A stretch of 49,246 bases of DNA from Psammoneis japonica (GCA_008632985.1 QPGO01000108.1:1-49246), one strand, 5' to 3'; shown: positions 26,793-49,246, counted from the stretch's first letter. Notes: generated from the letters alone by a model not told the origin. Numbers and translations: made by a program.

Positions 26793-26867
26793 CATTATTT
26801 GTGTGTGAATCAGCCGTGCAATCAGACGGTGCCAGTGTTTTCTCTGCTGTTGATGGACCACCCGCGG

Positions 26868-27046: not shown

Positions 27047-28314
27047 GTGTTGTCGGAGGACTGCTCATGTCCTGATTCTGACTGCCGCGTTCCAATTGTC
27101 ACGGCAGATTCTGTTGTCCTTCAGCCGCAGGATCAAGAATCCGATGAAGATGACACAAGTGACGCAACCGCGTACGATCGACCCGAGCCACCGGTCCTTT
27201 TACAAGTGCAAGATTTTGACATGGACAAACATGTGAGTGCTGTTTTTGAGTGAGTCTATCAACAGCCGAAGAACTCCTGCAATTGTTTGGTGTCATGTTT
27301 TTCACAAATCTCAGCCCGCAACATGACTCCTCCTGTGCTTTTGTTTCACATTGTCATGTCATCCCCAGACAAGACGGAGGTGCAAATGTCCTGTGGCTTT
27401 GCATGACGAGGCCCATCATGGCCGGAAACCTGACATCAGATGAGATGTGTTCGGACCGTGGCGTGGAGGCTGTCCAATCCACTCAGCAAAGAAGAGATGA
27501 GGCAAGGTGTCAAGTCGTTCAGGATCTCCACACGAACTCAAAGGTTCGTGCATGCACTGTGTCCCTGCAGGATGGCAGCCCCGCTTGTCACTTGAATTGC
27601 AACACACCCGCCAAGAATTTTGCCCAAAGGGTCAAGACGCGGTTTGGAACAGTGATTGATTTTAAGAAAAGTGGCTTCGTTCAGATCTGCATGGACTGCC
27701 GCTGGATGCAAAAAGGGGAGTGGCTGCAGTCGACACTTGGAAATCGCTTCTTTGGCAAAAACCTGAGGGATGTGATGGAAACGTTGTTTCATCCAAAGCT
27801 CCAGAGGTGCCGCGTCATAATCCCGTGCACCATTTGGTCACTGGCCCAAACCATGCGCAATTTGGATGACATTTTGGAGTGCACACTGGTGCGGGCCATG
27901 ACACAGGACATGGCATGTGAAACAGTGACACTCTGCCAGGCTTCCCAGGAGATTGTGGAGGAGTGCCGTGTGGATTGGCTGGGAAAACCATCTGACCAGG
28001 AAGCATCACATTTGGGAGTCACGGAACAGGAAATTCGGGAAACGCTGCCACATGAAGAAGCCAATTCAGTCCCAGAGTTCCTGCGAGAGTGTGGAAATTA
28101 CAACCCGAAGGAACCGTTCCCGTTCCTGTCCTTCGAGAGGAGAATTCCCAATTTTGGGGATGAGTTAAGGAAATGGCCTGGGAGTCATTTGCTGCGCTGG
28201 TTCCCAGTCGGATTTGTGAGCAGATTGTCAAAGCAGGTGAGTGAACGTTGTCTCTGTTGTCCTTGTCGTCCCAACCAAGTTTTCTGCTGCTGTTGTCGGA
28301 TGCTCACATGCTTT

Positions 28315-31300
28315 TCACCTGCTTTTGTGAAACAGCTCTCCCCATGTGTTTCTACGGTCTTGAACTGCCCAAACATGCTTTGTCCTGTCGTGTGTCTCAG
28401 CAATGCCGGGTTGCTCCTTGTGCACCAACAATTTGTCACCAACAGCATCGATGGGCACCAAGAAAAGCTTGGGTGAGTGCACTGTTTGTTCAGCAGAGGA
28501 CAAGTTGTTGTTCTTCACTTGGCCCAATTGCCAGCGACTGACCAGGTCGGTGTGTTGCATTCATTCAACCATGGTGCGCTTGTTGGGCTGGTGCGTGCAA
28601 GGGTGAACGACCGCGTGCAAGTCACTGTCGCTTTCCCTTTGGAAGAAACAGTGAAGTCTTGACGGGAAGCACAGTTCCCCCCCAGTTGTGCCAAAGTTAA
28701 CATTCGCCCAGTCGTGAACCGGTCCTTCGCTGTTGTGGTCTGGGTGTGCGCGGCAAGTGTCTTTCCCATTCTTGTGGCGGAATTCGGTTTTGCAAACAAG
28801 GTTGACGGTGAGGCCACCTCCTGCTCCAATGCATTCCCTCCACTTCTTTTGAAAGAAATGGAGCAGGACCAGGTGAACCTGACATTGTTTTTGCTTTCCG
28901 TGCCAGAGAAAGCTCACTGCATTGTTTGTTGCACTGTGGGTGATGGCAAAGGTGCTGCCACCCAGTGTGTGACTGTCGTTGCCACATGTGACGTCCTTTC
29001 ATCCAACTCTCGATGTGATCCATGGGTTGGCCGACAACGCACGGTGCACCGTCATTTGGTCTTGCACGTGCGACGCAACCTGACCCAGGAAGATGTCAAA
29101 GCTGCGTTGTTGTGCCATGGCAGAGGGCAATTTGAAAAAATCCTCAAGCAAAGATTCTCCAAGACCAGCGTCAAAGTTCATGGCATGACGGAAATGACAC
29201 AGAAAGATTGGAAGGTGAAGAAGCTCGTGAAGTTTTTGCAGCTTCCACCCAGCCCCTTCGTGTCTGGGGGAGCAATGTACGATGCGAGACACCAGCAACC
29301 GAATTTTCTTTGTGATTTTGGTCAGGTCAGTTGTGTCGGTCGGTGGGTCGCCGAGTCGACACCAAGCATGGAAGGCAAGCAGGTCTTCCAGCAACTGGAC
29401 GCATTGCCTGACACTGCAACTAAGGGGCTTTCTCTTTTTTTTCCTTTTCTGTTGATTGTGGCTGTTGCCTTCATCCTCGGACTTGTCCAGTTGTTGTTCC
29501 ACATGATCGTCTTCATCCGTTTTGTACGGATCATCTGTTCTGTCATTGGAGCGATGATCGTTGCCATTGTCGTGCTCTTCCGGCATGTGACAGCGATTGA
29601 TTCGGAACCTGGGTGTCCCACGCCCTGACGGCAATGGAGGATTGTCTTGGTCTTCCTGGAGAAAACAAGATTCGCAGACATCTCTGCCTTCCTTTGTCAG
29701 CAGCAACAAACAAAAAACAAAGGCCATCCCCGCCCAATGATGTGAGTTGAGGCAGGTGAGTGATGTTGCCCCGCCCTTGAAATTGGTTCGTAAGAAAGAA
29801 TTGCACGTGGATCGGTGATTGCCAAACATTTTTTCCACCAATCTGTCGACCTCGCTTCTCACTGAGTTTGTCATGCTGTCAACGAAAACACCAACCTCCC
29901 TTTTCAAAGTTCCATTTTCAAAAAGGTGCATCATGTCGCTTGCCATGGAAAGGGTTGCTCCGAACGGCTGTTCTCCGAAATCTGCACTGAGCAAGCTGTT
30001 GGTGGGCACATTGTGCTGCTTCATGCAATGAAGCTGCTGCAGCCAGTGGCTCCTTTCTTGCTCATCAAGACTGAGATCATTTGCGTGGTTCTGGACTGAC
30101 AAAATGTCGCCAGCCCTGACCAGTTCGCACTCCTTCCAAGGGTCGTCAAGCTCATTGCATCCGGTCATGCAAAACCTGGAACAACATTGGCGACAGTTCT
30201 TGGCACCACACCTGCCCACAAGGCAGTCACCACTCTTCGCATCTCTGTTGATTAGGATCATTGTTGGAATGACATGAAGGAAACGCATCTCATCACCACG
30301 TCGAACGCAGCAGCGAAAGCCGCCATTTTCCATTGTGTCTGGCAGAGGCTGGAGTGTTGTTGCCAACACCTTGTGACAATCCCGGATGCTTTGGCCCTTC
30401 TCCGACTTTCGAGCATTAGATTGCTGTTTGGCGGCGGAGGAGGACATTTTTTCTAGGTCGGGAATGCAACCAAGGACACGCCACTTCGCTCTGTCATGCC
30501 ATTGGTTGCAGGCAACATGAGCCGACGTAACTGTGACGGGTTCTCCGCAGGAAGACGACATGGAGGCTGTCTTCCCAGTCTTGTCAACGTAAATTGTCAA
30601 ACATTCGAGGAACTCTTTAAGAGGATCCGAGACCCTGGCTGCGCATGCACTTCTGTGCCACTCTCCTGCCAAAACACACTTGTCGTGCTTTCCCTTTGAG
30701 GCATGCATTCCGCATGGATCGGCAGTGTCGGCGAGATTGCTGGGGTTGGCCCATGTGTGAGCATCCAGCATGAACGATTCCCACACATCTTTGAAATTCC
30801 ATCGCGGAACTCTTGCTGTTGTCTCACCGCGTTCCCCATTGATGCTTTCTAGGTTGACTGGAATCATCTCACATTCCGGACCTGCAAAAGATTCATGTGG
30901 GTTCTCCATCAGTTTGGTCCGGCAAGGGATTTGCGTTCCAAGATGGAAGGCACTGCCACAGTGTCTTTCGATGAACTCAGCGATCTTGTCACACAGGTGA
31001 AGCGGTGCTCTGCAGTCGTCTAAGAGCTTGCACAGCTCTGCACAAGCACCGTTGAGGTTGCCAAGAGATGGCATGTGCACAAAGGCATCTTCGGCTGGGC
31101 TGCGGCACACCTCACCCAATCGGCTGTCTTCACTCCGCGAATCATCTTCGTCTGAGCTGTTTGATTTGTCAGGATTTGCAACTTCGGAGCCCTCCATTGT
31201 GACATCTGGCAGTGTGTCAAACGAGTCATCTGGTGACAAGCTGGCTTTGGAAGACAAGTCCAGGGACATGTCATGAATTTCCTCGTGATGGGATCGCGGC

Positions 31301-31713
31301 CCAAGAGCAGAAATGTCATCATCAAACGGTGGTGACCATGGTTCATCACTTCTGTCATTTTCGTTGTCAGTGGACCCAAGCCCAATGTTCGCTGCGGACG
31401 CACCTCGTCTGGACCGCCTCAGCCGTGGCTGTGACGCGTCATCTGATGAGGAGGAAATGTCAAGATCAACCGACCCACATCTGCGAGAGAATTTGTTGCT
31501 GACGTTGGAAGATTTAGCCGCAACCCTTGCTGACAACTCTGGCATTGGGCAGTTTGTGACTGCATCGCGACGTGACAAGTTGGACATCTCTTGAGCAAAC
31601 GAAAAACACAGTGGGTCATGATGGAAATGGGTGAGCATCCGTTTGAAGGATCGTTTGCAACGGGGACATGCCGCCACACCACCCCCACCCTGCCAACCAC
31701 CATTTCCTTCCAT
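28315..31713 (-). pseudogene. Plavaka-like (EnSpm/CACTA-related) DNA transposase, hypermutated and broken near the 3' end
   Basis: N-terminal CPRC..H finger; LTIYVDKT, WRVLGCIPDL, RDCHKVL, DAKSGDCLVGRCG, DMMHLFENG and KLQKLHELLH..NFDAGLGE..K motifs; C-terminal CRAHPDHNSEGPVHDWANVNF in ORF 28561..28917, continuing into 28315..28560. Confidence 0.8.
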
Positions 31714-32146
31714 TTGTTGTTGCAGCAGGTTTGTGGGCTGCCCAAACACATGTGTGTTCGAATGGCAGCACCGGTTCAGTTCGTGAAAAGTGAAATGGTT
31801 TGGGCGGCAAGGAAGGAAAACACGACACGAATTGGCACGAAAACATGGGTGCATTGTGTTCTTCCCATCAATGAAAACATTGACAGGTGAGAATGAATCG
31901 AATGTGTTGCAATGATTGACAACTTTGAGCATGAATGACTGGTTGCAAATGTTGTTTTTCTACGGAAAGGAAAAAATAAGTTGTGACGTGACAAGCCGTG
32001 ATGCGTTGCAGCGAGAAGTCCAGGAGGGGTGCACCCACACCTGCTGCAGCACCAGACACAAACGTTGCAATCAACAATGAATGCTGTTGTACAAAATGAC
32101 AGCTTGACGGCACATTGGCCAAACAACTGCTGGAGGATTTGAAAGT

Positions 32147-33487
32147 TTGACAATCATGACGGCAGATGGAAGGCGACAAATCATGGAATCGGAGTGCAAG
32201 GCGGCTTTTGATGAATTGGATCGTTTGACACAAAGTTCGCCACAAGGTGGGATGGTGCATTCTGATGACACGGGTGTGGCTTTGATCGAGTTTGAGAGCG
32301 GTGCACATGCAGTTAACCCGCACCTGCGCCATGATGCGATGGACCTGCAACGCATGATGAATGAGGACGACATCGAAGGGAGGTGGCGGGAACTGTGGAA
32401 GCAGAGGTGCAACCACATGGTTTGGCTGCACGAACATGTGAGTGATTGGAGCACAGAAGCAATTGAGTGCACGCACGCCAGCACAGGCATGATCTCAATT
32501 CACGACAACCTGAGCTGGTTGAATGGCGTCGTCAACCGTGGGGTCAATGCCCGCCATTGCCCGGAGCATTGGGGCTGTGTCGCGACTCACCAAGACAGGC
32601 AAGGAAGGATGTGCTGTGTCTGCAGTGCTCTGCACAATGAAGGAGAGAAAGAGCTGAGGGATGAATTTGCAGCGGGTGCGTGTGATGATGCAAAACTGGT
32701 CATTGACAGGGGAGACATTTCGAGATTGAGACGGAATTTGAGCATCAGCATGCCGACCTGTGGCATGGACAAGACAGGCACTTGCGGACTGTTGGGAGAA
32801 ACATTGGCAAGGGGAGGCACATGCGGACTTGCAATGGACAAGAAGGGAATTGTTTGCGATGCATTAAAACTGGCGAAGTGGCTCCAGCGTGACATCGTGC
32901 AAGACAACCATGAAAGACTTTGGTTCTGTGAGCAAATGGAGTTCTTCAGGTCATCTCCATGGACAGTCAATGAATGGACACTGGACATTGTCTGGAAGGA
33001 GGATGGTGAGTGGGAGAAATTTCAAAGCAGGAGAAAGGAAAAGCGTTGGGTGGAGAGACGTCGTCACATTGAAGTTAACAAATTCGTGAGAATGGTCGGA
33101 GCGGAGACGAGGGCTTTCACCCACATGACTGACTGTTCCGACATCGGGCGATGCATCAAGTTGAGAGTTACGAAGTTAGAGGGTGATGATGAATTGGACT
33201 GGAGAAAACGATTTGGCGCCAAAAAGGATGGATGTGCTTGGGCCCCAACAGCAAACCGGAATGACGTCAAAGCAGGTGAGGGGTTTGTTCATTGCAGCAA
33301 AAACAGTGAAAACAACTTTTGTGGGTGCACGTTTCACAATGATGTTTTGAACAAAACACTTTTGCAAGCAATTTGCACTGTGGAAGTGGATTTCGAAATT
33401 GCAGCAAAAGAGAGGTTTGAACTGGAATTCGCTAAAAGATTTGGCCAATTCTCAGTTATGTTGCATTTGAGAAAAAGGAATCATTGA
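32147..33487 (+). pseudogene. hypermutated ORF of unknown function, divergent from the transposase
   Basis: 446-aa protein-like ORF with no Tyr found; no family recognised. Confidence 0.5.
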
Positions 33488-33536
33488 TGGCAACTGCGAG
33501 ATTTTCAGCATTAAAGAGAGGTTTGAAAATTTTCCA

Positions 33537-34813
33537 ATGGCAAAAATAACTGGGACACAAGGCATGGAGCCACCCACAATTGGCGACAATGGCAAGGAAG
33601 AAGAAGAAAGGAACTGTGGGGGTGGCTGGAGATCAACCAACAAGCCCAAGGCTGGCCGCAGCGTTGGTGCGGGTGGGAGCCACTGGGGATCACCAGTCTG
33701 TGAAGAGAGAGGCAGAAGAGGTGGCGCGGAAGGAACTTTTCCCAAAGGCAAAATTCCTTGTCAAGGCGGACATGGCAAGCAGTGGCAAAGTGTCGCGGCT
33801 CATCAGGAAAAAGACAGCCGGAGGAAATTGCAGCAAGCGAGACTGGGCAGGAGCGTGGGAAGACTGGGCAAAGAAGTGCGTCATGTGTGCAATCAACGCG
33901 AAAAGGAGCACGGTCACTCAGGCGATCAAGAACAATGCAACGGCTGGCAAGTGTTTTGTGGTGCACGGCATGTTGAGTGTGGCTGCACTTGACACAACTG
34001 CACCTTCATTTGTTGAAGTCATGTTGACAGAGAGTGAAGCAGAGGAGACACACAGTCAGAAGCTGGCAGCAAAGGGTGGAGGTGGGAAGAAGAGCAAGAA
34101 GAGGAAGAAGAATGATCGCACGGAAGAGGAAGAGCCGTTCCTGGTGACTTGGGGGGAGGAGACTGTGACAACGATTGTGGAGGACAAGCGCAAGAACAAG
34201 GAAGCATGTGCTTGGTTCCACAAAAACATCCTGAAATTCACAAAGAGCACCGCCACATGGAGAAGGAAGGCAGAGTCGGGTGAGACAAAGGCAGCCGGTC
34301 TGGCTGCAGCGAGCGACGAGGCTCTGGCGCTGTTGACACTGGAAAACTGCTGGAAGAGTTGGGAGCACAAGGCACGTCATGACAAGACTGTTGCAGCAGG
34401 GGGGGGGGTTGGACGAAGAAGATGAGGAAGAGTCGGAACCAACACCCAAGTGCACGGACCCGTCAAGGCAACGAGACTCGTGGAAAGATGCAGGGATCAA
34501 GCGATTCAACGAACTGCTTGCGGCAGCGAAGAAAGACAGGTTGAGTGAGGAGGGCATGCAGTTCGACACATGGTGCAGCGAAGGCAAGAAAAGGAAGAGT
34601 GACGAAAGAGGCAAGGGACCAAAAAGAAAGAAAAAGCAGGTGGAGGAGGCAAGAACACAGGCAACGATGGAGCTTTCAAGTGACGACAAGGAGAAGGAGG
34701 AAGAGGCAACGGACGAGAACAGAGGAGACAAGGACAGCGATGAAGGGGAGGAGGACAGTGATGCGGAAAGCGATGCGAATGTAGATGCAGATGGTGAGCG
34801 AGCTGCGGCATGA
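33537..34813 (+). pseudogene. transposon accessory ORF (SDEAxALLxLENxW...WxxxGxxRFNxL type) with frameshifts
   Basis: ELFPKAKF..W..INAKRSTVTQAIK, then SDEALALLTLENCW and SWKDAGIKRFNELL, with an acidic tail. Paralog at 6891-7870. Confidence 0.65.
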
Positions 34814-36489
34814 AAAGGCAGCGGAGGCTTTTGTTAGTGTGACAATGGAAAGAGGACAAGCAATGCAGCAGGTTTCAATGTCAACAGTTGCGAGGCTTGA
34901 CAAAGCGTCAAAGGGATCATTGTTTTGTGATCTAACCTTTCATTTGACAACCAGTGCATGCAGTGGAACCAGTGCATGCAATGGAAGGTTCTCTTAACCA
35001 ACGCAACGCAATGATCAGCATTGAATTGTCATTGACCAAAACGTTGCGAACATTGCTTTCAAAAGGTAAAAAGTGACGGAATTCTGACAGTTGAGGGAGG
35101 GGTCCCACAGGCAAAGGAGGGGTCCCATGGTGAAAAATGCAATGCTGTGATGTGCAATGAAAAATCATGTTCTACACAACTCACTCAATGTGAAACTGTT
35201 GCATTCATGCCCACAATGGCATTGAAAATTGCCCACAAGAAGGGTGGTCACGATCACTGCATTTCACGATCTGATGTTCCACTGATGAACTTTGCTCATC
35301 ATGCTGCAATGAGGATGCACCCTTGGCAAACGTGGACAGAATGGGCTTGTTGGAGCCAAATCAACACCATCTGAGAAGGGCAACATCAGCACAAGAAGGT
35401 GCATGGAAACCTGTGTAGAAGCTGAGGGCATGCAGCTGACATTGAAAAAGCAACATGGCTGCACATGGAAGCAGCTGCTTTCCACCTCATGACAAAAAAA
35501 ACACCGCTGTTGAAACCATCATGTTTTGCTCAGTCTGCAGGTGCCATTTTTCTTTTGTTTGCTGCTGGCTGTGGCAGCTGCGGGCTCACGGAGATTTTGG
35601 CAACTTTCAAATGCAAAGTCATTGCACCCTCTTCTTGGGCCATTTTGACCTCCTTCTGTGAAAAGCACTCAACACAAAATGACACCATTGAATCCTCTGC
35701 ACATCCAAACTGGCCCACGTTGACCACACTTCTGTTTCATGCAGGTCCATTTTGGTGACCTCATGCACATTGACTTTGGGCTGATCATCCATCAAGACCT
35801 GCAAATTTTTTTTTATGTGCAACAGAGGTGTTTTTGCATGAAATGTGGCACAACTCACCATTTTTTCCTTTGCAGCGCATCTCTCATGTCTGCTTCACAT
35901 TGTCGACCAGTCTGCACCACTTTCACAACAGCAAAGAAGAAGTCAAAAAAAAAACACCATGGCAATTGGCACAAAAAAACACATCTCAACAGCGTGCATT
36001 GATTGTTCCTCTTTCTGGTGGTTCTGTGAGAGTCACTTCACCAAAGGACAAAATCACACCCAGCAACAAGGTGTCAAATTTTTGAGTCATTTCCAACATG
36101 TGGTTTGCCATGGAGGGAATTTTTTGGACATTGTGTTCAAGTCAACACTGTTCAAGACAATGAGTGCATTTCAAGGCCTTGGCAATTTGATCCTTGGCAA
36201 TCAAGGCATGTTGTGCATGCTTGGAGTTGGTCAGATGGGGGCTTGCAGAGGGCTTCTTTGATGGTGACTGGCTGCCCCCAGCTGTGTTCTTGGTCTGAAA
36301 GGTCCATTGCGGCAATTGTCAACATGCAGACAGTTTTTGTTTGCAGTTTGTTGTTGCACTGTAGACTGACAATGGTGTTTTGTGTTTGTGCAGTGTCGCT
36401 GTGTGCACATCAGTGCAATGAGCACAATGCAATGATTGTCACTTTGAAGATCAAGGAATGACACAAGCAGTTGTGAGTCTGGATGCTCC

Positions 36490-36633
36490 ATGGCAACAAA
36501 CTGAGAAAGAAGAGCCACACCCATCACAGTTGGAGGGGGTGTTGGGTGGAGGCAGGCCACAGTGGACACAGAGGGAGACCCTGAAGGCATGCTTCTCATG
36601 ATGACAAATCTCCCAGAATGACAACTCAACCAC
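36490..36633 (-). mobile_element. short relic of a CRE-like non-LTR element (zinc-knuckle region)
   Basis: FRVSLCVHCGLPPPNTPSNCDGCGSSFSV resembles the FRDxLxxRYGxxPxxLPxxCDGCGxxFSxxH pattern. Confidence 0.6.
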
Positions 36634-38118
36634 ATCATGTCAATTCAATTGTCTTGGGTGTCACTCCTGATTTGATTGTCTCAGTGATGATGCTCGCAGT
36701 TTAGACAGCCAACGTGCTCCCAAATGCCCATGGGGGTTGAGACAAACAAAACCATGCTCCGGCTGATGGGGCACCAACAAATGCAGTGAAACAATTGGGC
36801 AAGTGTGCACAACAGCCAGCCAGCTGGCCAGCTGGCTGCTGCAGTGATCCACTGAGGTCCAGTCACAATCACAGTGCAAAAAATGGAAGATGTCCTTGTC
36901 ATTGACACCAAACTCAAACTCCCAATTCTTGTTCTTCTCACAATGCTTGATCATCTCAAACACTTCCATTGCCCACCAAAGCCATGCCTTGACAGGAGTT
37001 GTCACCATGGGAACCTTTGCAAGGACCTTTGACACAGCAAGTGGCTCCTCGCCAGATGCCGGTGAGCCAGTGACAACATTCTGCAGGGCACGAAATGCCG
37101 GGACCATGTTCTTCTTGTTGAACAATTTTGTCTTGTTGCCCTCCATCATGGCCTTTGCCATTTTGAACTTGTCTGGCAAGGAATGGGTGCCCACTTTTTC
37201 GTGGCAGCCCACCTTCACCAAGGCAGTTTGGCTGCACTTGCAGGACAGGCTGTGTGAATGACAGTCCCGGCTGACCGTGTCATGTTTGTTGCTGACATTC
37301 ACCTTGACATCAGTGTAAAGAGAACAGCCAAAGTCTCCAACCCAAAGTTCCTTGAGAATGTTGGAAGGCAACTCACACTTTGTGACAAGACCTTGAAGTC
37401 AACAAAAGTTGGCATCTGTCTTCAATTTGGGAGCATCACTGCATGTGAGGAGCGTCTTGGCTTTGCTGTCATTGCAGAGCTTTTGTGGAAGTTTGCCCAG
37501 CTAAAGATGGCAGAGAACACAAAAGAAGATGCGGCCATCTCAGTTGGGGATGACAAGCAGGGGTTGTTCTCCACTTGTTGTTTTCTGGTGTTTGGTCCAT
37601 CAATCGGCCAGAAGAGTGTGAAAAAAGCTGTGCTCTTCCTTGTCGCCATCATGCAAGGTCAAGAGAATGCTTTCATGTGTGGTGTGCGAACAGCCATTCA
37701 CCATCAAGTGGACAAGAGGATCTGGCTCATTGGCGTGCATGCCAGCAGATTTGGTGCAATTGTTTGTTGGCATGCCCTGTGCATGTTTGCTTGTTTTCAT
37801 TTTATTTTTTCAGTGGAACAGAACCACAAGCAAAGGAAAGTTGAGTGCGCTGGCAATGGCGGCATGGAGAGAGGAGAGAGAGTTTCCATGATGTCGTCAA
37901 TCCACGATCCACTGTCGATGAAGGGGGGGGGGCATGTCACAATCCCGCATGATCACAGCATGAACTGGCGGTGCACTGTGCTGCCCTCCAAGTCCAATTT
38001 TCAACACAAATGATTCATCACTGAACAACAGCCACACTGTCAGAAGGGTTTCACACAGCCTCAAAGTTGCCATTGCCTGTCATTGCGTTCCTCATTTGTG
38101 CACGTTGTTTCACGTTGA

Positions 38119-39968
38119 TTGTTGGAGGGAGAAAATGTGGTGGCTGTGTTTTTTTGCAGTGTGCAGCCTGGCGCAAACTCTCTGCTCCACCCAGCTGCCA
38201 GAGCAGAGAGCAACAAATGCAAAAATGAAAATTTCCTCTTCAAAGCGATCGAACATGCTTTGTGCATGAAAAGTGACAGGTTTTCAGCAATGTTGACGAC
38301 AACCTTGAGGCAAAAAGCCATCACCCTCAATGTGTCAAAAGTTTTGTTGTTGCAAACAGATTTCATGTTTGCACTTGCACTCCACAACAATTCAACATGG
38401 CAGAGTTTGCCAATGAGGTTTCCATGCAACTGCAATCAGACTTCCTTCACAGAAGAGAGGGTGACAGCGACGACAACGGCAACCAAATTCTTCCCCCAAA
38501 CGGAGCTGTGTTGGAGCTGGGGGGTGGCTTCACAGTGTGTTGCAACCCAAGAAAAATGTGGCCGGCCTCATTGTTGAGGAGTTGATGCCGGAGAGAATCA
38601 TCGTCCAAGAGAGGAGATGGAAATGGCCTTTGAAGAACTTCTCCACAATGGGTCCAATGCTCTCACCATGTTTTCTGGAAGCCCTGGTCCCTGGCATTGG
38701 AAAATCCACACTCTTGTTCCTTGTTGCGCTCTGCAGGGTTGTCACCAAGAACGACAAAGTTGTCCACCTCCATTGGGCGGATGACACAGACAAACTTGTC
38801 AGCATTTTTGCAATGGAGCACAAAGAGAACCATGTTTTTATCTGCTTTTCTAGAGAGGTGTCCCAGACACTCGATGCAGCAGTGAAATGTGAAAGCCTTC
38901 GTCATTGTTTTGATCATGGAGTCTCTTGGACGGATCCCTCTGTCATGGGTGTTGCGGATGGTCCAAAAAGCCCCGAGTTTTCAAGATTTTCCAAACTCAC
39001 TCATGGATGTGCATCCGGCAGTGATGCAAGGATTGAGCATCACATGGTTTGGAAAACATTCAATGCAGCCATGGGTGGCTGGAAGAAGGTGGATCTGGAA
39101 ACCGCCATTGTGGCCCAATTGAAGCTTGACCCGACAGAGATGAATCCAGAGTCAACCCAATTTTTTGACCAAGAAAAGTTTGATGCTGTGCATTTTGTGC
39201 ATGGAGGGCGCATTTGTGGTTTCCCACAATCCTGCCAATCACAAGACGGCGTCGATGTGACATTCGCCGACCATGTTGTTGCTCCCATTTCCAAGCAGCA
39301 GGCTTCACTTTTGCTCTCTCACTCCAATTGCCGATCAACGACGAGCATGTGGACTCTCTGCAAACTGTCTTTTGGATGGCAAATGGATCTGCGGACAATG
39401 TTGTGTTGCACGTGACTTGGGCTGCATGTTGCAAAAGCTGAGGATGAACATCAGTGAGGAAGAGCTTTTCTCCAGCTGCCAAAAGGCAGAGGCAGAGGGC
39501 AACAAGGGGGCTCAGTCAAACCATTTTAAAGAAATGCTGCACTGGTGTTTTTGCCTGGAGGGCACATCCCCATCAATTGCTCAATCAGTTCACACTGAAG
39601 GAAGTGGTGCTGAAGGTGTCGGCAAGCTTGTGCAGAAGAATCAGCACTGGATTCCATCAGCTCCCAATTTTGCAAACATTGACTCTGCTGTGGCTGGCAG
39701 TGATGAGAAGGTTTGGTGCTGCCAACTCACTGTTTCTAGAAAACATTCCCACAAGAAGTGGCATTTACAAAACACCTTTCTCAACCACACTTCATTCTTG
39801 GATGACATGAACGAGGTTGTCATTGTGTTTGTTGTCCCACAGGGGACAGAAATTGCTCTGCCAGACACTGGCGGCAAGGCTGAAACTGACATTTTCCAAG
39901 TCAACTGCTCTGCACTCGATGCAGTTCTTTCTTCCGTTGGACTCCTGGCAGCTGGAGTGGCAGTGTGA
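38119..39968 (+). pseudogene. Crinkler/RHS-like P-loop NTPase + restriction-endonuclease-fold gene relic
   Basis: Walker A (G)SPGIGKSTLLFL is broken by a 7-bp duplication at ~38682-38695; Walker-B-like VADG follows; C-terminal WIPSAPNFANIDSAV..CQLTVSRKH..VIVFVVP. Confidence 0.7.
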
Positions 39969-42336
39969 TCTGGTCTTTGACAGTTGACAGCACAGTCCAT
40001 TGCTCAAAATCACAACACTGGAGTTCATCCAGCACTGCAGCATGAGACCATGCACCCCAACAAACAAGTCTGCTTGTTTGCTTTGTTAAATTGTCAGCTC
40101 TGTTGCCTTGTTTTAACCATGAATGCCAGATGTGTTTTGCCACCTGACCCTGGCTGCAGAGCAAGTTTGCAACTGCAAGCAAGCATTTGATTTCATGATT
40201 GACGATTGACTGCAAGTTCAGGTTCATTTGCTTGACTTTCTCACAGTCAAGAGAAACAGTCTTCAAACAGAGGATGTTGAAAGGGCACTCTGTGAGAAGT
40301 GCCGCAGTGCCATGGGGTGGGGTGCAAGAAGTGGCACTGTGGGATGTCACACAATGATGCACATGAAGCCAACCCTGACACATGTGCAACCAAGCCCTTC
40401 AACATCCTCATCACAACAACAAGTCTGCTGGGCTCACAGCAAATGCAATGGCATGTGCAGTGCTGGAGCAGCATCCTTTCTGTTTTCAATGCCCGCGGAA
40501 GCATCAGAACAAAAAATGAACCTTCACGTCAATGATGCGTGCACAACAAATGCAGCGCTTGCAGCAGGCAAGAAGTCAATGCAATGACTGGCCAGCCTCA
40601 ATCCATCTGACTCAGATGTGCTGCCAGACTGTTTTACAAGCAAAGCATGCTGAATCAGCTGCCGACCATTCCACTGCATTCTTGAGGTGAGATGAAAGTC
40701 TGTTCTGTGTGGGGCATCAGTTGGGCCATGAAGTCACTTCTTTTGTTGCAACTTTTGCAACATGTTGGTGCTGGGCAGGTCAAAAATCAAAAACCTCATT
40801 GACACTGCCAGTGTTGAGCACAATCATGTTGCCTCCTCCGGATTGGCCCAAGTCCATTGTCTTTGTCCATCAGCACATCCGCAGCCCTTTGCTGCGCCAC
40901 TTTGCTTTTGCTTCAGGGGCATCAGGTTTCTCTCCCTCCATTGTCATTTGTCACACAATGGGTGGCTGTCATCCATTTCGGCTGGAGGCAAGAGGCAAAG
41001 ATGCAACAATGCAAAAGAGCAAGCCACACACAAGACACGGAACAATTGAGAGGCCACAGCACAAGTTCTTGAGTGTGGCTGGAACAACAACAGAGCAAAA
41101 ACACAAGCAACCACCCCGTGTGTGCCAAGAATTTGAATGGATCTCCACAGCAGCCACCAAAGTTGTCTTGTTTCTTGAGCCCAGCACTTTTGAGCATCAT
41201 CTGCAGCTCGCCCTTCTTCCACAGCGTGCAAGCATCCGTGGCGCCACCGACAAAAAGAGCAAAGAGAGAGCAGCAAGTTTTCAGCCTTCCTCCTGGCAGG
41301 AGCTTTGATGTCGGGATTCCTGTCAGGCAAAGCACTGTTGCTGACAGACCAGCGCTGTGCAGCATGTGTGCGCTCTCTTCAGGAGCTCTCACTTGACAGA
41401 AGGGCGCCAAAGTTGAAAATTGACCGGAGAGAGCTTGTGCTGCTGGCTGGGGGTTCAGGGTGCTGTTTTTGTCCTGCAAACTCTCTTTTTGCCATTTTGT
41501 CCCCAGATCTCATGCACAAAGGGCTGATTTTCTTTTGTCTGTGAAAGCTTGCTCTGGAGCTGCGCCGCCATCTTGCTTCACAAGCAGCAAAAGCTGGGCG
41601 GGCCTCGCTTCTTGAGCACACCAACTTGCCAAAGCAAGCAACAAGTTCTTGCTTGTCACATTGTTTCATCTGTGTCATCCCATGGCTTCATCGGAGAGAT
41701 TCGGTTGGATTCATGCGTCATTCTACTGCCGGTAGAACGCAATGTGATGGCTGTGCGGCCTAAAAATTCACTGCACTGTACGGTGTTTGATGATGATTCG
41801 GGGGACCAAAAGAAGATTCATTGGATTAGTCGGAGTTGCCATATGAAAGATTCGTTGTAGAAATCTACGGGAAAAACGTACGACGAATCTGCGGAGGTGA
41901 GTGAGCCAGTCACGACGAAATTTCAGATCGGCGGCGACCACTTTTTTCTTTTTTTCTCTGCGTTTGTAAAAGGGCACTGTGTGTAAGTCGCGAGACACTT
42001 TGGCCGTTGTTTGTCGTTCGATGATTTTTGCGTGAAAAAGCGTGTATATGAGCCTTGTATATGTCTTGCTTGTGTGAAATGCATTTGTTGGAGAGCTGGA
42101 GCCTGGAGCGTACTTTTGTTCATCATCGCGTCTCAACGCTCCTCTTCCAGCATTTGAGAGAGGTGAGCGAAGATTCACGAGATTCAGCCGCACGGGCTTG
42201 CGAGTACGAGATTCGCCGTAAGATTCTACGCGTCCGATACGTGTCTCCCGGCGACACTCCCACTTTTTCTGACACCTCATAATGCTATTGCTTTCGACGT
42301 AACACAGAGCGGCTCTTCGGGACAAAGACAGGTATC

Positions 42337-44122
42337 ATGTTACGACTTAAGAAGCTCAAAAAGAAGATTGCGACTGAGGAGGGCCCCAGCTGTCCACATA
42401 GCACAATCTCGGAAGCATCTGGTGACAATTTTACCCAAATGGTGATTGAGAACGTACCTCGCACCATTTCAGTGGCGAGCAGCGTCACTCACCCTGGTTC
42501 GACTGGATCCATCTCCTCTGACGGACTTCATGTTATGGGGCCCAAATATAGCGACGACGAGACTAGTGCCTCTGGGGGAGTTTACATTCTCAACAGTTTG
42601 CGTAAGGGAGATTCGCCGAGCGAAACTACCATGTCGGTTGGTTCCAATCAAAGTCTAGATTCACCTCACGAATGTTCTGTATCGGGCGAAGCAAGCACCG
42701 CAATGGCTGACTCGAATGCGAAGAATGAAACGGCGGAGACACGTAAGCGCAAGTCCGATGTTCTGAACAAGGTCCCAGATGAGGACAAATCCGCCGAGGA
42801 CTCTCTTCCGCAGAAGAAGCCTTGCGTGAGCATTGCTCCGGATGTGCGTTTTCTCGCGAGCTCTGACGATACCAATCACCTTAATCCTCTCCACACCTTC
42901 ATCCGCAAGCAGATCGAGGTCTTTACGGCTTCTCCTGAAGACATGGCACAGCCTGCACCCGGACGAAAGACTCCCGTGAAACTGAACCAAGTCGGGCTCC
43001 GCTGCACTCACTGCAAGCATCTATCGCCTCGGGATCGTGTCAAGCGCGCTGTCTGTTACCCTACTAGCCTGGGTCGCGTGTATCACTCTGTAAGTGATAT
43101 GAAGTTTGATCACTTTAGCAACTGCCGTGGACTCTCGCCGGAGTTGCGCGCCGAGTTTGAATCTCTCAAGCTTCAGTCCAAGACGGCCGGAGGAAAAAAC
43201 TCCGGTTCGTCGACTTCCAAGTACTATCAAGCCGCAGCAATGAGGATGGGAATGGTGGATGGTCATGGTGGTATTTACATGGGCCACGTGGGTGAGACTC
43301 AGCAACCAGTGAGACCGAGTGTCCCTTCCATTGCTCCTCCTCGCAAAGTGCCTGCTACGAAGAAGACCAGAGAGCTTGCGAGGAGAGTGTCAAGTGACGA
43401 CGTTCGACCTTCGCCTCCACGTCAAGTTGTGGCTGCGGCTACCTCATACCGACAGCTTCCTCCCGTGTTTTCAATCCCACCTTTGATCTACCCCATGACG
43501 ACCTCCAACCACTCTAGTTCACCACGCTCTGGAAGAGTGCTTCTTTCATCCCCGTTGGACGAGCAATTCCTCAACCCACTTCATTGCTTTGTTCGACGCA
43601 ATGTCGAAGTCTTTGCTGCAACCCCGGAAGACATTGCAGCTCCCTCTCCTGGCCGGAAAACAAGGGTTGCCGTTGGACAAATCGGTCTCCGTTGCATTCA
43701 CTGCGCAAAACTACCTGCAAAAGAACGTGTCAAGCGCACCGTGTGCTACCCGCCGTCAGTCGGAGGTATCTACCACTCTGTATCTAATATGAAGTTTGAT
43801 CATTTCGGCAAATGCAGGGGCTTGCCAGAAGCAGCTCGGGCCGAATTTGAGTCACTCAGGGAATCTTGCAGTAGTCGCCGCGGCGGCGGCTCAAACAACT
43901 CGTTTAATGACCAACTCGACTGCCCAGTACTACCACGACTCTGCGATTAGACTTGGCTTGATTGACAAGGGGGCAGGGATTCGTTTCAGGGATCAGCGAA
44001 TTTTGTCAGAAGCTCCCAAGTCTTTGGCGCGACCTCCAGCAGACGGGATCCATGCTCTCATGTTGGCGGCTACAAATCCGCGCGTTCGTGCCGACTTTGA
44101 CAGACAACATGTCAAGGTTTAA
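42337..44122 (+). CDS. protein with two tandem Cys/His domains (diatom putative transcription-factor type); apparent frameshift near 43880-43905
   Basis: Two copies of LNPLHxFxRxxxEVFxA..PGRKT.V...QxGLRCxHC..RVKRxVCYP..YHSVSxMKFDHFxxCRGL. The end of repeat 2 (NSTAQYYHDSAIRLGLID, cf. SSTSKYYQAAAMRMGMVD) lies in the +1 frame. Confidence 0.8.
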
Positions 44123-44479
44123 ATTTTGTTGTCTATCTGCCCGGATTGTGGATAGACGTCGTTTTTGATTTTTAACATGTTATAGACCAACTCCATGCAA
44201 TGCACCTACTAGACTAGGGCAAATACTGTAACGTGATTCGAATGGGCAAGTAGAGTGAACTACTTAAACTCAATTTATCTAGTGAAGAAGATGAGTCCAT
44301 GGATCAGCAAGGATCGTGCGTAACTAGAAGTAGGAACGTAACGTTCTTGGTTTCTGAAAGCGCGGTGAGGCAAGTCGGACTGAACCGATTCCATGACGAG
44401 GGCGCAAATAGACCTAAATGGGAGTTGATGTTCTGTCGACTTAACGGCACTTTGACCCTCTTTTTGATGTGCATCAGGC

Positions 44480-44760
44480 CCCCAGTGACGTGATTAATTG
44501 AATAGAGAAATAGCAAGACGTCGCCAGTTGCATGACGTTGGGTCAAATAAGGAAAACCAACACGCGTGGTGCTCCGCAGAAAAGAAAACTAGGTTCTCAG
44601 CTCCTTCCATAAATGCTGATCAACGCGGTGGCGGAAAAGCGCGGTCCGCATACGTGTGAGCACAATCTACGTGGTCACAAGTACTGATGATCACGTACGT
44701 ATGCAATCTTTCCCATTTCGATTTCTACGTAGGATCCAGTACAACTTCTACGTGATCATT
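44480..44760. promoter_or_regulatory. cluster of ACGT-core (TGACGT/CTACGT) motifs upstream of the plastid-protein gene
   Basis: TGACGTGA, TGACGTT, TACGTG, TCTACGTGG, CACGTACGT, TCTACGTAG and TCTACGTGA within ~280 bp; bZIP-type cores. Function is inferred only. Confidence 0.35.
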
Positions 44761-44829
44761 GACACCGAAGATCAAAATTCGATTTGACATCTTCTGCTCT
44801 CACATTTTTCGTTCGTCGTCAAATCAAAC

Positions 44830-45339
44830 ATGGTGAGTGAATTTGGAAACGAAGAGCATCCTTCTTTTTGAATGAGAGGCATTTCCTCGCAGGCGCGTAG
44901 CAACGGGTGTTCACAGAGTGTTACTTACTCTCCTTTTCTTCATTTTCTTTTTCAGTACAAGATCACCGCCCTTCTCGCCCTTGTTGCCTCGGCTTCGGCC
45001 TTTGCCCCCACCTCTTTCGGAGTTCGCCCTTCCACCAAGGTTTTCTTCGAATACGGAAAGTACGACGACCAGGTGTGGGACATGGCAGCCAAGGATGATG
45101 TCTACGCCAGCTGGGACCCCAACCAGCCCCGTACCACCCAGAACTTCAACCCCTACGAGACATTCGGCGGAAACTCCCCCGACGCCAGTGGAATCTACCC
45201 CGGTGAGGCTTTCTACAAGGATCCCATCCGTGGTGATGCCAGTTGGGACATCATGGTCAAGGAACGTGAAGCTGCCGAGGCCCGTGCTGCCAACCCCAAG
45301 CCCGGTGATGTTCCTGGAGCCCCTGGATGCAAGAACTAA
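44830..45339 (+). CDS. small plastid-targeted protein of unknown function; exons 44830-44832 and 44956-45339
   Basis: ATG|GTGAGT intron ..TTTTCAG|TAC gives MYKITALLALVASASAFAP (signal peptide with the ASAFAP cleavage motif); strong C-ending codon bias. Confidence 0.88.
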
Positions 45340-45611
45340 GTTCTTTCATTCTCATTCGAACATGCGCACGAAAATTGACATAGATCCATTCTAACTCATA
45401 AATCACACGCATTGCATCAGACAATTCGCACGTCTTTCATGAATTTAGTAGGTAATTGCGTTTATTTCATAGAGCATGCCGATAGCCGATTTCTATTGAC
45501 TTTCGAGAAACAATTCAGCGCACCAATCGCAAATTCGATAGCGCACTTCGATACCGCAGAATTTTTTTCATCTCAAGCGCACTTACTATAAACTGTGGCC
45601 GAACGAGTTTA

Positions 45612-46685
45612 TCAGTGGGTCAATCTCGGCCATCCATTTGCATCACGCTTTTCCAAAGTGATTGTCAAGTCCCCGTCTTTTGATTCCGTGCCTCTGTCCA
45701 ACGTCCACGTTGAACCGTCAGTATCAATGTGGTCGAAAAGTTTCATACCTACCATCTCCGTTTTTCGAACCTCGACAGAAATTGATTTAGAAAGAAACTT
45801 GACTTTGACATCCTTGGTAGTAACATCGCCAGGGACAGGAATGACCACCTCGATTTCGTCTTCCGTTTGTGTCCACGAATACCCGTCCTCCACCTTTGCC
45901 ACCCCGTCGTCTCCCGCAAGAGCTGGCTGGACTTCGTTCCGACCAGTGATTTGATTCATGGAAGTTTGATACTCCAAATTCTGCATGGTTGCCTTCTGAA
46001 GCCACTCTGCGTCTGCGGCAGTATCTTTTCCAAGTTCAAACGAAACATTTCTCAAAACAGGTTTGGTCTACAGGAAATTCGAACAGTTCGTTAGTTCAAT
46101 CCACTTTTCGAAGTAAGAACATTTTTGGATCCAAGTAGGCTTTCATTCTCCAGCGTATGAACATTCACGACGTACCTTTATCCTTCCAATGTAAACATCG
46201 CCGTAAAATTGCGGCGGAGGGTTGAATCCGGCACGGGCAGCGTAGTCACTAGCGCGAGAATTGAGCGGAAGGCGTTTGAGCATCCCCACCTCATCCAAAT
46301 AAATATTGATTGCCGTAAAGTCGTTTGAGGGTGTCGCATGAACCAGTGAAAAGGATTCCACACTGCCCTCGGATGCAACCTGAGCCAACGCCGCTTCCGA
46401 GACGGATGCTTCCACATTCCCCAGTTGCTGAGTAGCGTGTTCTTTGAACAATTTCAAATCGACAGTTTTCGAACCACCACCAAACGCTGGTTTCAAGTAA
46501 GTCAACAACAAATCCCCGTCGGCGCTTGATTTTTCCAAGGGAATCGCAAACGACTTTTCTTCGAGCGGTCTCGAAGAATCATGTGGGATCTCCACAAACG
46601 TAATTCTCTCCTGAGGCAAATTTTCGGCTTCTCGAAGCGCTTCTGCCACCTGGGCTCTACGTCTTTCTTCTGGAGTTTCAATCAT
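45612..46685 (-). CDS. NudC-like CS (p23) domain protein; exons 46685-46176 and 46067-45612
   Basis: GTACGT..ACTAAC..TGTAG intron joins the exons in frame; C-terminal YSWTQTEDEIEV..DVKVKF..LFDHIDTDGSTWTLD..LTITLEK..W CS domain. Confidence 0.85.
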
Positions 46686-47043
46686 GACTCCCTAGAGAAG
46701 AAGAAGAAGAAAAATGCCACGCATATTGTACATCACCCAGTGTCTGTCAGCTACCGGTACACAGATTGAAGATGGTCTCGGTTTCGCGCTTCAATCCAAA
46801 CACAACTTACCCGTTCTCGCAGCCATGCGAGCCGCTGCTCCGGTGTCATTCCATCGTCGTCCTTTTCCTCCGACATGATCAATGATGCGGTTCTTGTAAA
46901 TGGCGTGTGTCAACGTTTCACGGTGTAAGAATGAAATGCCATGGGTCGTTGAACAAGTAGCAAGGTGAATGTGATCGAAGGTGGGCGAAACCGAAAGAGG
47001 TCGTAGACTTACAAAGAGCATGTAGATTTCTACGTCGGTTTTG

Positions 47044-47520
47044 GCGGCTATCGCCGCTTTTCTCGTTTATCCTCGGCGGCGATCTTCAAGCTAGTGTAAA
47101 TCTAAAGGCCAGTGATCCAAGGTAGGAGTGGAGTGGGCTTTACTAGCACACGAACTTTCCTTCTCCAAACAAAAAACCCAGGCTGGACGGCAAGGGCCAG
47201 AGGGCGGGAGAGGTGGGAGCGTTTTAATCTATCTACGGGCCGGCTTGCTGTTGTTGTTTCCAAAGGAATGAGAGGAAACAAAGCAGCCGGTGAGAGAGGC
47301 GGCCAGGAAGTTCGGGAACTTTCAAATGGAATGGGGAATCTCGCCTTGCGGATTGCTCGAGGACAGCGGCTATCGCCGCTTTTCTCGTTTATCCTCGGCT
47401 GCGATCTTCAAGCTAGTGTAAATCTAAAGGCCAGTGATCCAAGGTAGGAGTGGAGTGGGCTTTGCTAGCACACGAACTTTCCTTCTCCAAACAAAAAACC
47501 CAGGCTGGACGGCAAGGGCC
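47044..47520. repeat. split direct repeats: 155-bp copies at 47044-47198 and 47366-47520 flanking a 167-bp segment
   Basis: The copies differ at 2 positions; matches the B1-A2-B2 3' end of Ngaro elements. Confidence 0.92.
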
Positions 47521-47620
47521 TCCAGCCACCTCCAAATGCACTGCATGAGCTGCGCAGGGCGCAGTGGAGGCTGTGACAAATTGGGTGGGAGAGGTGGGAT
47601 CGTCTGGCGGGCTGTGGCGG

Positions 47621-48796
47621 TCAAGGCATGGCAGGAGCAATGGGAACGTCGGCATTCGGATGGAGGACGAAGTGGCCACCGGCGAGCACACGTTGGGCGA
47701 AATTGCGCATGACAGGCTCCGCTTGTAGATGGAGGCATCGGAGCATTTCGTCGGACCGCCATCGGCCCAAGAGACGAATTGTGTCCATGTCGACTTGGGC
47801 ACACAGCAATCCCATGGCACCCGCGGCTCGAAGGCAGCGCGCGGAGACATCAGAGAGAAGGAATCCGAGATTCTGTGGACCAAGTGCAGTGATGGCAGCA
47901 CGGAGGATGGACGTGATGTCAGTGGGACTGACTCGGTGCCAGCGTCCGTTGCAGAAGTGGACTGACAAAGGTGTGTCAGGCAAAGCGCCAAAGGTGCGCA
48001 AGTGAAGTGTTCGGCGTACGGCAGCTTTGACGGGGCAGAGTTGTGGGTGGCCGGAGAGGCCAAGGCCGACAACTTCGCCACGAACTCCATTCTTTTGCGC
48101 AGTGAAGGTGAGCGTGGTGAAGGTTGCAGCGGCGAGCTGCGCGTCTGGGGCATGGAAGACATCCAAATGGATGCCACCAGCGGAGAGGCGTGCGTCGGCG
48201 AGCCGAAAAGGAGTGGTCTCCGAAGGGGTGGCTGTGCATTCACCAGGACGCAAGAGAAAGAAAAAGGCAAGGGCGATCATGTCAGCGACAGCATGGGTGC
48301 CGGGGTGCTGACTGGCAGCAGCAGCAGCCAAGATCCAATGGAGCACGGCCACGGGTCAGGTTTTGCACGGTCGGTGGGCGGATCCTGCTTCTTGCAGTGA
48401 CGGATCTGGCGGGCAAGATGGAAATCCAAGCCGCCTTGGAGGGTGAGCCGTGGGTCCGGGGCCCCCATTGCAGCGAACGTTTGGCCAACCGACCGCAGGG
48501 CATCTTCAGCGGTGCGTGCACGGACGGGATTGCCACGTGGGGCGAGGACTCCGACTCGACATCGGTGGAGGAAGACTTGGAGGAATGAAGATGGGGTCTT
48601 CGACTTCGACAAGGAGTGGATCGACGGCCAGTGTGTGGCAGAAATTGGCCCAGAGGTTCCAATGGGTGTCGGCGGCGGAGGCTCGTGAAGGGGCAACTGT
48701 GAGGGCAACGGCTCTCTGCGCAGCACCGAGGTCACGAAGGAAATCAGCTTTCGTGGCGGGGTCCACAAGCGCCAAGGTTTGGTCTGCGGGTGACAA
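47621..48796 (-). pseudogene. tyrosine recombinase, frameshifted, catalytic Tyr replaced by Cys
   Basis: FFFLLRPGEC, FTAQKNG, LCPVKA, SARCLRAAGA and IRLLGRWRSDEMLRCLH; N-terminal parts in ORFs 48277..49167 (VRARTAEDALRSVGQ..G.PDPR) and 48506..48796. Confidence 0.88.
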
Positions 48797-49246
48797 GCAT
48801 TAAAATGGTGCAAAAGTTCCGTGTTGGTCAGGGATTGTAAACGGGAAGCATCGTCAGCGGCGGTGTTGAGGGTGCCTTGTAGGAAGTCGTGAATGGTGAC
48901 GTGACGATGGAATCGTTGATGGCAAGCTTGGCAGCGATGGAACTCGGCACGAAGCTCAGAGGTGGTGGAGGAACCTTTGCGTTGCCAGAACAAAGCACCC
49001 AAACTGTCAGTGCGCTGAAGGTTGGTGCGCTCCCGCAGGTCGAAACATTCGGATGCAGCGCATGTGTGGACGATGCTGCCCACGAGTTCAAGGTCGGTGT
49101 TGGTGATCGGGCCGTGAGGATTCTCGCAGGTGGCAAGGTCCTGGGTGACCTGGTTTGGGAAAGGCACACGCCAAACAACGGGACCGGGGTTGGTTTGAAT
49201 GCGGCGGCATCCGTGTGGACTAAATTTTAGTTTGGTGGCGCGTGGG
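48600..49246 (-). pseudogene. RT/RNase H C-terminal region of the Ngaro-type element
   Basis: ITNTDLELVG..RTDSLGALFWQRKGSST..FLQGTLNTAADDASRL RNase H pattern. Confidence 0.8.

Follow-up and report, generated by a model that had tools for sequence, protein, structure and literature searches.

Flank-dependent loss of TpA in transposon-rich blocks of a diatom-like genome

Defence-like mutation that destroys TpA, in a manner resembling repeat-induced point mutation (RIP), has appeared in print once, in a 2026 preprint on the chlorarachniophyte Bigelowiella natans whose main text treats it at the level of the dinucleotide. In mutation-accumulation lines of this species, two viral insertions are reported to have acquired 231 new mutations, 230 of them being A>G or T>C changes, all at TpA; 124 clusters depleted in TpA and enriched in CpA plus TpG are mapped, and an ADAT2-like protein is put forward as the candidate enzyme (Mettrop et al., 10.64898/2026.01.13.699255). 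The main text of the preprint contains no mention of flanks or context beyond the dinucleotide, while its supplements may contain flank data (10.64898/2026.01.13.699255). Fungal RIP is described as turning CpA into TpA, enriching TA (PMC2621366). Our literature search returned no report of TpA-specific hypermutation for diatoms or other stramenopiles. Here we analyse a 49,246-base stretch of Psammoneis japonica DNA (GCA_008632985.1, QPGO01000108.1:1-49246; hereafter the window, which includes two N runs), in which TpA is almost erased from long blocks holding transposon relics, and in which the survival of the remaining TA sites depends on the bases that flank them.

Two kinds of DNA alternate along the window, one with TA near nil and CA and TG at up to twice expectation, the other with ordinary TA (dinucleotide observed/expected ratios, O/E, per kb). 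TA O/E is 0.01–0.17 in the depleted blocks as opposed to 0.4–0.74 elsewhere, and CA and TG each reach an O/E of 1.6–2.0, with AA, AT and TT unchanged. Because these three are not reduced, the loss is confined to the TpA step, and TA alone is depleted among the dinucleotides containing A or T. By dinucleotide counts and segmentation, the depleted blocks lie at 1–950, 1474–2398, 6002–7392, 7763–13122, 18674–19996, 20320–24771, 25218–26429, 26908–41720 and 47469–49244. A two-state hidden Markov model (HMM) over all TA, TG and CA sites, used to define depleted and normal segments, gives approximately 32 kb of depleted sequence with 145 TA and approximately 17 kb of normal sequence with 639 TA; these, together with 64.8 kb of related loci, form the data base of the analysis. 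Switches between the two states are abrupt, those at 13122/13125 and 41720/41724 each taking up roughly 100 bp at most. The depleted blocks contain a Plavaka-type transposase relic, a relic of a P-loop protein gene and high-copy repeats, and the normal blocks contain open reading frames (ORFs) for a helicase, a CRAL_TRIO protein and a CS-domain protein. The best explanation is that the window belongs to the nuclear genome of a diatom-like alga, as a scaffold about two thirds of which is transposon-derived or foreign DNA. The largest continuous depleted segment, 26908–41720, retains 55 TA among 3,096 TA/TG/CA sites, and multi-copy repeat makes up its left part as far as roughly 35.4 kb. Per kb of this segment, the gain of 67 TG plus CA approximately equals the loss of 31 TA plus 30 CG; therefore two processes, TA decay and CpG decay, supply the TG/CA pool.

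The interval 35100–41720 is the most thoroughly TA- and CpG-depleted stretch of the window, with 16 TA in 6,621 bases and a TA O/E of 0.03–0.05 per kb. The original prediction held that every TA surviving there stands in TA[AG]A or T[CT]TA. A full listing confirms this for 16 of 16 sites, four of them (36702, 38851, 39527 and 39737) with the motif on both sides, and the sites that had been cited as examples are all in place (35173, 35416, 36362, 37316, 37502, 38851, 39737 and 39766). Between 8000 and 13200, where some exceptions had been allowed for, 26 of 32 TA are in the motif, and the six that are not include cttagt, attagc and agtagt, as had been noted. Chance is inadequate to account for the 16 sites because the motif takes up only 222/639 TA (34.7%) in the TA-normal segments and 442/2,472 (17.9%) in 14 unmutated Plavaka loci, giving a chance probability of 4e-8 or 1e-12, respectively; compared with the remaining depleted segments (82/129) the probability is 7e-4. 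The preference extends over all depleted segments (98/145 TA in motif versus 222/639 in normal ones, p = 7.5e-13), among them the second strongly depleted segment at 8797–13122 (15 of 17 TA), the depleted repeat segment at 20320–24771 (21 of 30) and the segment at 6002–7392 (6 of 7). Since the motif was defined post hoc on the two cited regions, the fair test is the DNA outside both, where 63/106 TA are in motif versus 222/639 (odds ratio 2.75, Fisher p = 2.6e-6).

To express this preference per context we used a survival index, defined for each 3′ flank as TA/(TA+TG+CA) on both strands of the depleted segments divided by the corresponding ratio for a baseline, which corrects for flank frequency and for CA or TG sites able to mutate back. 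Two ancestral proxies served as baselines: the TA-normal segments of the window, and metagenomic loci of Plavaka transposons that are unmutated (14 loci, 64.8 kb, with L010 and L016 of the 16 left out for their low GC of 0.39 and 0.31). None of the 16 Plavaka-related loci is TA-depleted (whole-locus O/E 0.39–0.76), and they provide no independent replicate. The index is highest for TAAA (0.32 with the window baseline, 0.57 with the Plavaka baseline), followed at a distance by TAGA (0.17 and 0.32), TACG (0.19 and 0.21) and TAAC (0.165 and 0.143), and falls to 0.028 and 0.025 for TACC and to 0.015 and 0.017 for TATC. The context rankings from the two baselines agree closely (Spearman 0.985). By position, with the window baseline, the index at +1 is A 0.20, G 0.10, C 0.08 and T 0.037, and at +2 it is A 0.18, G 0.10, C 0.06 and T 0.06; at +3, A and T do somewhat better than G and C, and at +5 and +6 it is flat.

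A logistic model with a block-by-context interaction, evaluated by likelihood-ratio tests with each baseline, gives the same picture. The interaction is large (2dLL 150, 15 df, p = 2e-24 with the window baseline; 269, p = 1e-48 with the Plavaka baseline) and is carried by +1 and +2 (p = 2e-15 and 4e-7 with the window baseline; 1e-22 and 6e-20 with the Plavaka baseline), with minor contributions from +3 and +4 and no significant one from +5. For all-A half-sites the main effect in the model is zero or positive, that is, no depletion is predicted. Independence of survival from the flanks after normalisation for ancestral frequency had been named as the outcome that would overturn the motif; it is not what is seen, the dependence being strong with both baselines. 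The rule is best written as a graded weight matrix for each strand, +1 A>G>C>T and +2 A>G>T/C. The term 'protected context', under which the motif was first presented, holds insofar as survival is strongly flank-dependent, but the protection is graded and motif sites are not immune: ccgTAgaa has become ccgCAgaa in one copy of a miniature inverted-repeat transposable element (MITE), and the window reads TCTGGA and TTTCAAA where other repeat copies retain TCTAGA and TTTTAAA. The earlier interpretation is in this sense partly supported, in a graded form.

The two sides of a TA site can be considered separately as half-sites. Sites with zero, one and two TARA-type flanks have survival indices of 0.052, 0.207 and 0.553 with the window baseline and 0.047, 0.356 and 1.38 with the Plavaka baseline, so that one favourable half-site raises survival 4–7 fold and two nearly abolish the loss. 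The values multiply approximately, as they would if the attacks on the two strands were independent and each were governed by a single flank. The products of decay point to the strand involved. With CpG decay subtracted, half of it being assigned to TG and half to CA by assumption, the fraction of TA losses that gave TG on the flank-bearing strand is 0.15 for TAA, 0.36 for TAG, 0.56 for TAC and 0.75 for TAT with the Plavaka baseline (0.28, 0.37, 0.71 and 0.52 with the window baseline); with the Plavaka baseline it climbs from TAA to TAT in the same order as mutability. Because the TG share is lowest for TAA, the A of T-A-A-A is the refractory base or, equivalently, the T of T-T-T-A is refractory to T>C. 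A-flanked sites are lost mainly via the other strand, a step that leans on the baselines and in which single contexts are noisy.

The direction of change is recorded in two coding relics. The Plavaka-type transposase relic is a 986-codon open frame at 29002–31959 on the minus strand with 29 homologues, at E-values between 1e-158 and 2.5e-12, and PF18759 is present in 19 of them; the relic itself has no Pfam match and does not reach the gathering score of PF18759, and its transposase label rests on the homologues. It has 0.2% Tyr, 4.8% His and 5.1% Cys, as opposed to 1.8–3.2% Tyr in seven aligned homologues and 1.5–4.9% in all 29. At the 17 columns with Tyr in at least 40% of the homologues aligned there, the relic has Cys at 6, His at 4, Tyr at 1 and other residues at 6 (two Arg, and Phe, Gln, Trp and Val); the Cys and His codons, TGY and CAY, are precisely what TAY becomes when its TA decays. 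Both remaining Tyr codons of the transposase had been regarded as survivors. The codon 'att TAC' does exist and stands in TTTA, but at position 30591 of the window, outside the interval to which it had been assigned. The other, ccgTACaaa, is outside the motif and looks newly made, because 7/7 homologues have Asp there. The second relic, at 38465–39412 on the plus strand within the single-copy block, derives from a P-loop protein gene with a Walker A motif (GIGKST). Its best homologue (P0153, 515 residues) matches at E = 1.8e-64 and 47% identity, the match carries on in another frame at 39261–39965, and five aligned Tyr of this homologue are His or Cys here. Its relatives are few (17 representatives at E ≤ 0.001 among 1.84 billion); the Atlas clusters nearest to the homologue are Crinkler/RHS-like, which we treat as a lead only.

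Copies of the same sequence elsewhere in the genome were compared by aligning the contigs of one public run (X1) to the window for depth and copy differences; the runs listed as containing the sequence included none of RNA. Depth is 1,000 to about 100,000 over approximately 21800–35806, as opposed to about 65 beyond. The region 35419–41799 is single copy, matched at a depth of 64 by one 11.7 kb contig that departs from it in 4 letters and 2 gaps, and no terminal repeats were found bounding it. The window and other copies differ at 311 positions (A>G 68, G>A 84, C>T 65, T>C 60, transversions 33). Among 40 of these differences are five TG/CA doublets, with one form in the window and the other form in other copies, which is what the independent decay of one ancestral TA in separate copies would leave. 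The same 40 include six sites where the window has TG or CA and the other-copy contigs have TA; four of these are in TCTA, TAAA, TCTAGA and TTTAAA, as expected if ancestral TA in the motif decays slowly. A further seven CA/TG doublets are found between the repeats at 6950–7400 and 34280–34750; the segment 6002–7392 is related to 34300–34708 at 69.5% identity.

A MITE of approximately 380 bp provides the most direct view of the process. One copy, at 7381–7774 on the plus strand, has terminal inverted repeats of about 30 nt and lies, not TA-depleted, between depleted segments; the other, at 26417–26796 on the minus strand, lies inside a depleted block, inserted in a repeat whose other copies lack the insertion, and an empty-site joint of 26416 to 26797 at depth 445 makes it an insertion polymorphism. 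The two copies have 27 aligned differences, ten of which are TA versus TG or CA. Nine TA (eight of them non-motif) were lost by transition in the copy at 26417–26796 and at most one in the copy at 7381–7774, and the motif accounts for 7 of the 14 TA kept but for 1 of the 10 lost. Given that the second copy has lost TA and that empty sites exist, the mutator acted on the chromosome after the MITE was inserted; and as both of the DNA transposons, the Plavaka-type element and the MITE, are affected, no RNA copy step is needed. Repetition is not needed either: the MITE, with the highest depth (bin word depth about 1,500 times the single-copy depth), is barely touched, whereas the single-copy block is saturated, being depleted as hard as the repeats. 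Fragments of the MITE are also present at 21454–21544 and 18895–18935, and a metagenome scan for the MITE end gave 0 matches.

We consider it probable that the flank dependence is a context bias in the forward mutation rate, with a mutator changing TpA to TpG or CpA in situ. The original prediction favoured enzyme recognition over passive drift; the short footprint fits recognition better. The loss of TA, the direction of the change, its occurrence in situ and its dependence on flanks are demonstrated by the data above; that this dependence reflects the sequence preference of the mutating enzyme is what we infer. The proposed mutator would recognise 5′-TA-3′ together with some four neighbouring bases to one side of it, and would work on either of the two strands wherever transposon or foreign DNA is silenced. 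Each strand would be attacked separately, the A-to-G rate being set by the bases 3′ of that A or, equivalently, the T-to-C rate by those lying 5′ of the T in the opposite strand. Mutability would follow T > C > G > A at +1, be slowest for A at +2, vary less at +3 and +4 and not vary from +5 onwards. A TAAA half-site, and after it TAGA, would slow the loss, such that TTTAAA and TCTAGA would hardly be depleted. In old, saturated blocks such as 35.1–41.7 kb the process would have run to completion, leaving the poorest substrates; with only slow sites left, such blocks would show the motif-only pattern first noticed there. CpG decay, from CG to TG or CA, would run alongside. The candidate chemistry is deamination of adenine to hypoxanthine, which would give A>G, with a change at T as the alternative. 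The enzyme would most likely be a DNA adenine deaminase acting at 5′-TA-3′, by analogy; we adopt this chemistry because adenine deamination is, to our knowledge, the only simple A>G route and because it agrees with the proposal for B. natans.

Other explanations for the pattern differ in how well they fare. GC-biased gene conversion, or a general drift from AT to GC, is rejected since AA, AT and TT have a normal O/E. A strand-specific action coupled to transcription is rejected since TG/CA is near 1 in the depleted segments (0.9–1.3 in every segment of at least 4 kb, 0.73–1.30 in shorter ones). A flank effect that arises as a by-product of less-mutated, AT-richer segments is rejected by the lack of any effect at +5 and +6. 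The same TG/CA ratios, equal for both strands, speak against an origin at the RNA level, in which ADAR-type editing of double-stranded transcripts would be followed by reverse transcription. ADAR has a preference for G 3′ of the edited A, from which the +1 order of T>C>G>A differs. The damage also extends to DNA transposons and to the single-copy block, and within a block to all elements, a later-inserted MITE included. What editing does share with the window is the 5′ base, the U that ADAR is stated in the preprint to prefer before the edited A (10.64898/2026.01.13.699255) corresponding to the T required here; overall we find this origin very hard to credit. Just as improbable is an artefact, whether a misreading of modified TA in silenced DNA or a post hoc pattern in 16 sites. 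The motif was indeed defined post hoc, and run X1, the sole run containing the stretch, may itself have been the source of the assembly, hence giving no independent proof against a sequencing artefact. However, the pattern recurs outside the regions that defined it, the open frames show coherent changes from Tyr to His or Cys, and one and the same repeat site reads TG, CA or still TA in different copies; N gaps of defined size and a contig word depth of about 64 would fit short reads, which are blind to modified bases.

Two further alternatives accept the flank dependence and explain it differently. The local structure of DNA might matter without any base-specific contacts, if TA within a T-tract/A-tract is poor for base opening or flipping, or is better repaired. 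The best-surviving contexts do have runs of T before and runs of A after the TA, A and T are equally good at +3 with G and C worse, and all-A half-sites are undepleted in the model. AT-richness alone is insufficient, however, as A is best and T worst at +1; TAGA is second best with the Plavaka baseline, and the effect can be assigned to a strand, with the TG share rising from TAA to TAT. We regard a purely structural cause as doubtful. Slightly less so, though still unlikely, is an equilibrium in which the present TA have mostly been remade from CA or TG by C>T, for example TYCA to TYTA, in which case the motif is the context of creation. Here lie several of the points that weigh against a context-biased forward rate: static counts yield just the ratio of forward to back rates, and a high C>T rate at TYCA gives the same picture; the indices for zero, one and two half-sites are also within error of the additive model that creation implies, the two-sided sites numbering 16; and the Plavaka relic has 13 TA, at least one of which, that of the Tyr codon in the Asp column, is clearly new, so not all are survivors. 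That new TA is non-motif, though, and 5 of the 13 are in codons for homologue-consensus Leu, Val or Tyr, as survivors would be. Because the counts are normalised by CA and TG with the same flank, re-creation alone would require a 20–30 fold range of C>T rates across contexts. The MITE changes, moreover, go from TA to TG or CA and avoid the motif, and the motif's share of the TA that other copies keep opposite TG or CA in the window (4/6) fits a slow ancestral loss. The remaining points that count against a context-biased forward rate are of another kind. TACG/CGTA survives to much the same extent as TAGA (0.19–0.21), which an A-rich rule leaves unexplained; either a methylated CpG shields the neighbouring TA, or such TA mark younger segments that keep their CpG. 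The only direct test, that of the MITE pair, draws on few sites (p = 0.05 one-sided and 0.08 two-sided). Both baselines are proxies for the ancestor of the cited block, one from host genes and the other from 14 related transposons of other organisms. The strand assignment, finally, depends on the baseline and on the even CpG split, with TACA at 0.99 versus 0.53 and TAAC high in both.

The TA-normal DNA of the window consists of gene islands. The island flanking the cited block, 41724–47467, has TA at 0.20 of its TA/TG/CA sites, served as part of one baseline and contains a CS-domain ORF at 45615–46067 on the minus strand (Pfam). It also contains, at 42283–43947 on the plus strand, a 555-codon frame with no Pfam match and with an internal repeat, 42988–43168 versus 43678–43858, at 68% identity. 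The island at 13125–18671 contains an intronless DEAD-box helicase ORF at 16786–18510 on the minus strand (Pfam), the best relatives of which are 55–75% identical and, where named, come from diatoms (Pseudo-nitzschia, Cyclostephanos, Stephanodiscus, Thalassiosira, Grammatophora and Cylindrotheca), with one plant protein at rank 91. No database protein matches one of the window's with full identity, and the host is accordingly taken as diatom-like and distinct from Bigelowiella. A further ORF in TA-normal DNA has DUF6824 and CRAL_TRIO domains (Pfam). Among the 126 open frames of at least 110 codons scanned in the window, none in a depleted block matches a Pfam family, and for the ORF at 36664–37398 (minus strand) no relatives were found among longer proteins.

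CpG varies along the window in its own way. There are 17–31 CG per kb in the depleted blocks versus 53–65 elsewhere, and CpG and TA loss are uncoupled: 35000–41720 and 10000–13000 have lost both (CG O/E 0.09–0.4), whereas 47469–49244 retains 76 CG per kb yet is TA-depleted. Many of the non-motif TA survivors adjoin CpG, with examples at 30529, 29792 and 26908–35100. An AT-rich, TA-rich island at 24781–25215 (GC 0.34, bin word depth about 16,000) lies within depleted DNA and is probably another young repeat spared TA decay. The plus strand has a strong purine skew at 1001–3000 and 32001–35000 (GC skew 0.2–0.4, AT skew 0.15–0.4), where low-complexity open frames rich in Ser, Glu and Asp are found, for example at 34006–34833. 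At the edge of a depleted block, two direct copies of 155 bp (47044–47198 and 47366–47520) are 98.7% identical and 322 bp apart.

New here are the TpA signature at saturation in a diatom-like genome and a quantitative flank rule with strand assignment, a rule that lends itself to direct tests, on the de novo mutations already published and, in vitro, on candidate deaminases. TA decay under the flank rule explains the long, Tyr-free, His- and Cys-rich open frames that gene finders report, and the rule offers a way of reversing the signature in silico, making dead transposon families recognisable. More tentatively, diatoms and chlorarachniophytes might share a dedicated genome-defence mutator that removes TpA from incoming DNA one strand at a time and leaves a readable footprint some 4 nt long (5′-T-A, then T>C>G>A, then not-A). 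If so, the system would be old and widespread in lineages of the stramenopile–alveolate–rhizarian (SAR) group, and the footprint could serve as a fingerprint for tracking down the enzyme, as well as for locating and dating its action in any given genome.

Among known systems, the RIP of ascomycete fungi requires duplication. The window resembles it in showing defence-like transition hypermutation of a dinucleotide, on DNA in place, with transposons riddled by missense changes and a diagnostic dinucleotide skew. The direction is opposite, however: TA is depleted here and CA and TG are enriched, with homologues showing the change from TA to CA or TG. Nor is the process limited to duplicated DNA, as the most depleted block, 35419–41799, is single copy at depth 64. 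The tRNA adenosine deaminases (TadA and ADAT2–ADAT3) deaminate an A that follows U or T, at U33-A34 in the anticodon loop, and their natural substrates include UAGA and UAAG loops. The target A likewise follows a T in the window, but the contexts corresponding to UAGA and UAAG are poorly mutated; no TadA/ADAT-family protein was found by Pfam among the 126 open frames of the window, and nothing here ties the pattern to this family. Decay of methylated CpG takes place in these blocks as well and adds to the TG/CA pool, but it is incapable of removing TA, and 47469–49244 has near-normal CpG yet is TA-depleted.

The closest counterpart is B. natans, as described in the main text of the preprint. 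The host here differs, being a diatom-like stramenopile and not a chlorarachniophyte, and CpG decay accompanies the loss of TA. The loss in the window is saturating, with a TA O/E of 0.03–0.1 as opposed to a Rho of 0.45 in the active nucleocytoplasmic large DNA virus (NCLDV) region of B. natans, and de novo events that were measured there are inferred here. In other respects the two are alike. TpA alone is affected, giving TpG or CpA depending on the strand, and the changes in the window, too, are almost only A>G or T>C at TpA. A single-copy block can be affected in both, and the TpA-depleted coding sequences of B. natans include genes for DDE transposases and reverse transcriptases. As in B. 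natans, TpA is down and CpA plus TpG is up in blocks of foreign, transposon or viral DNA, and the adjoining host genes are spared.

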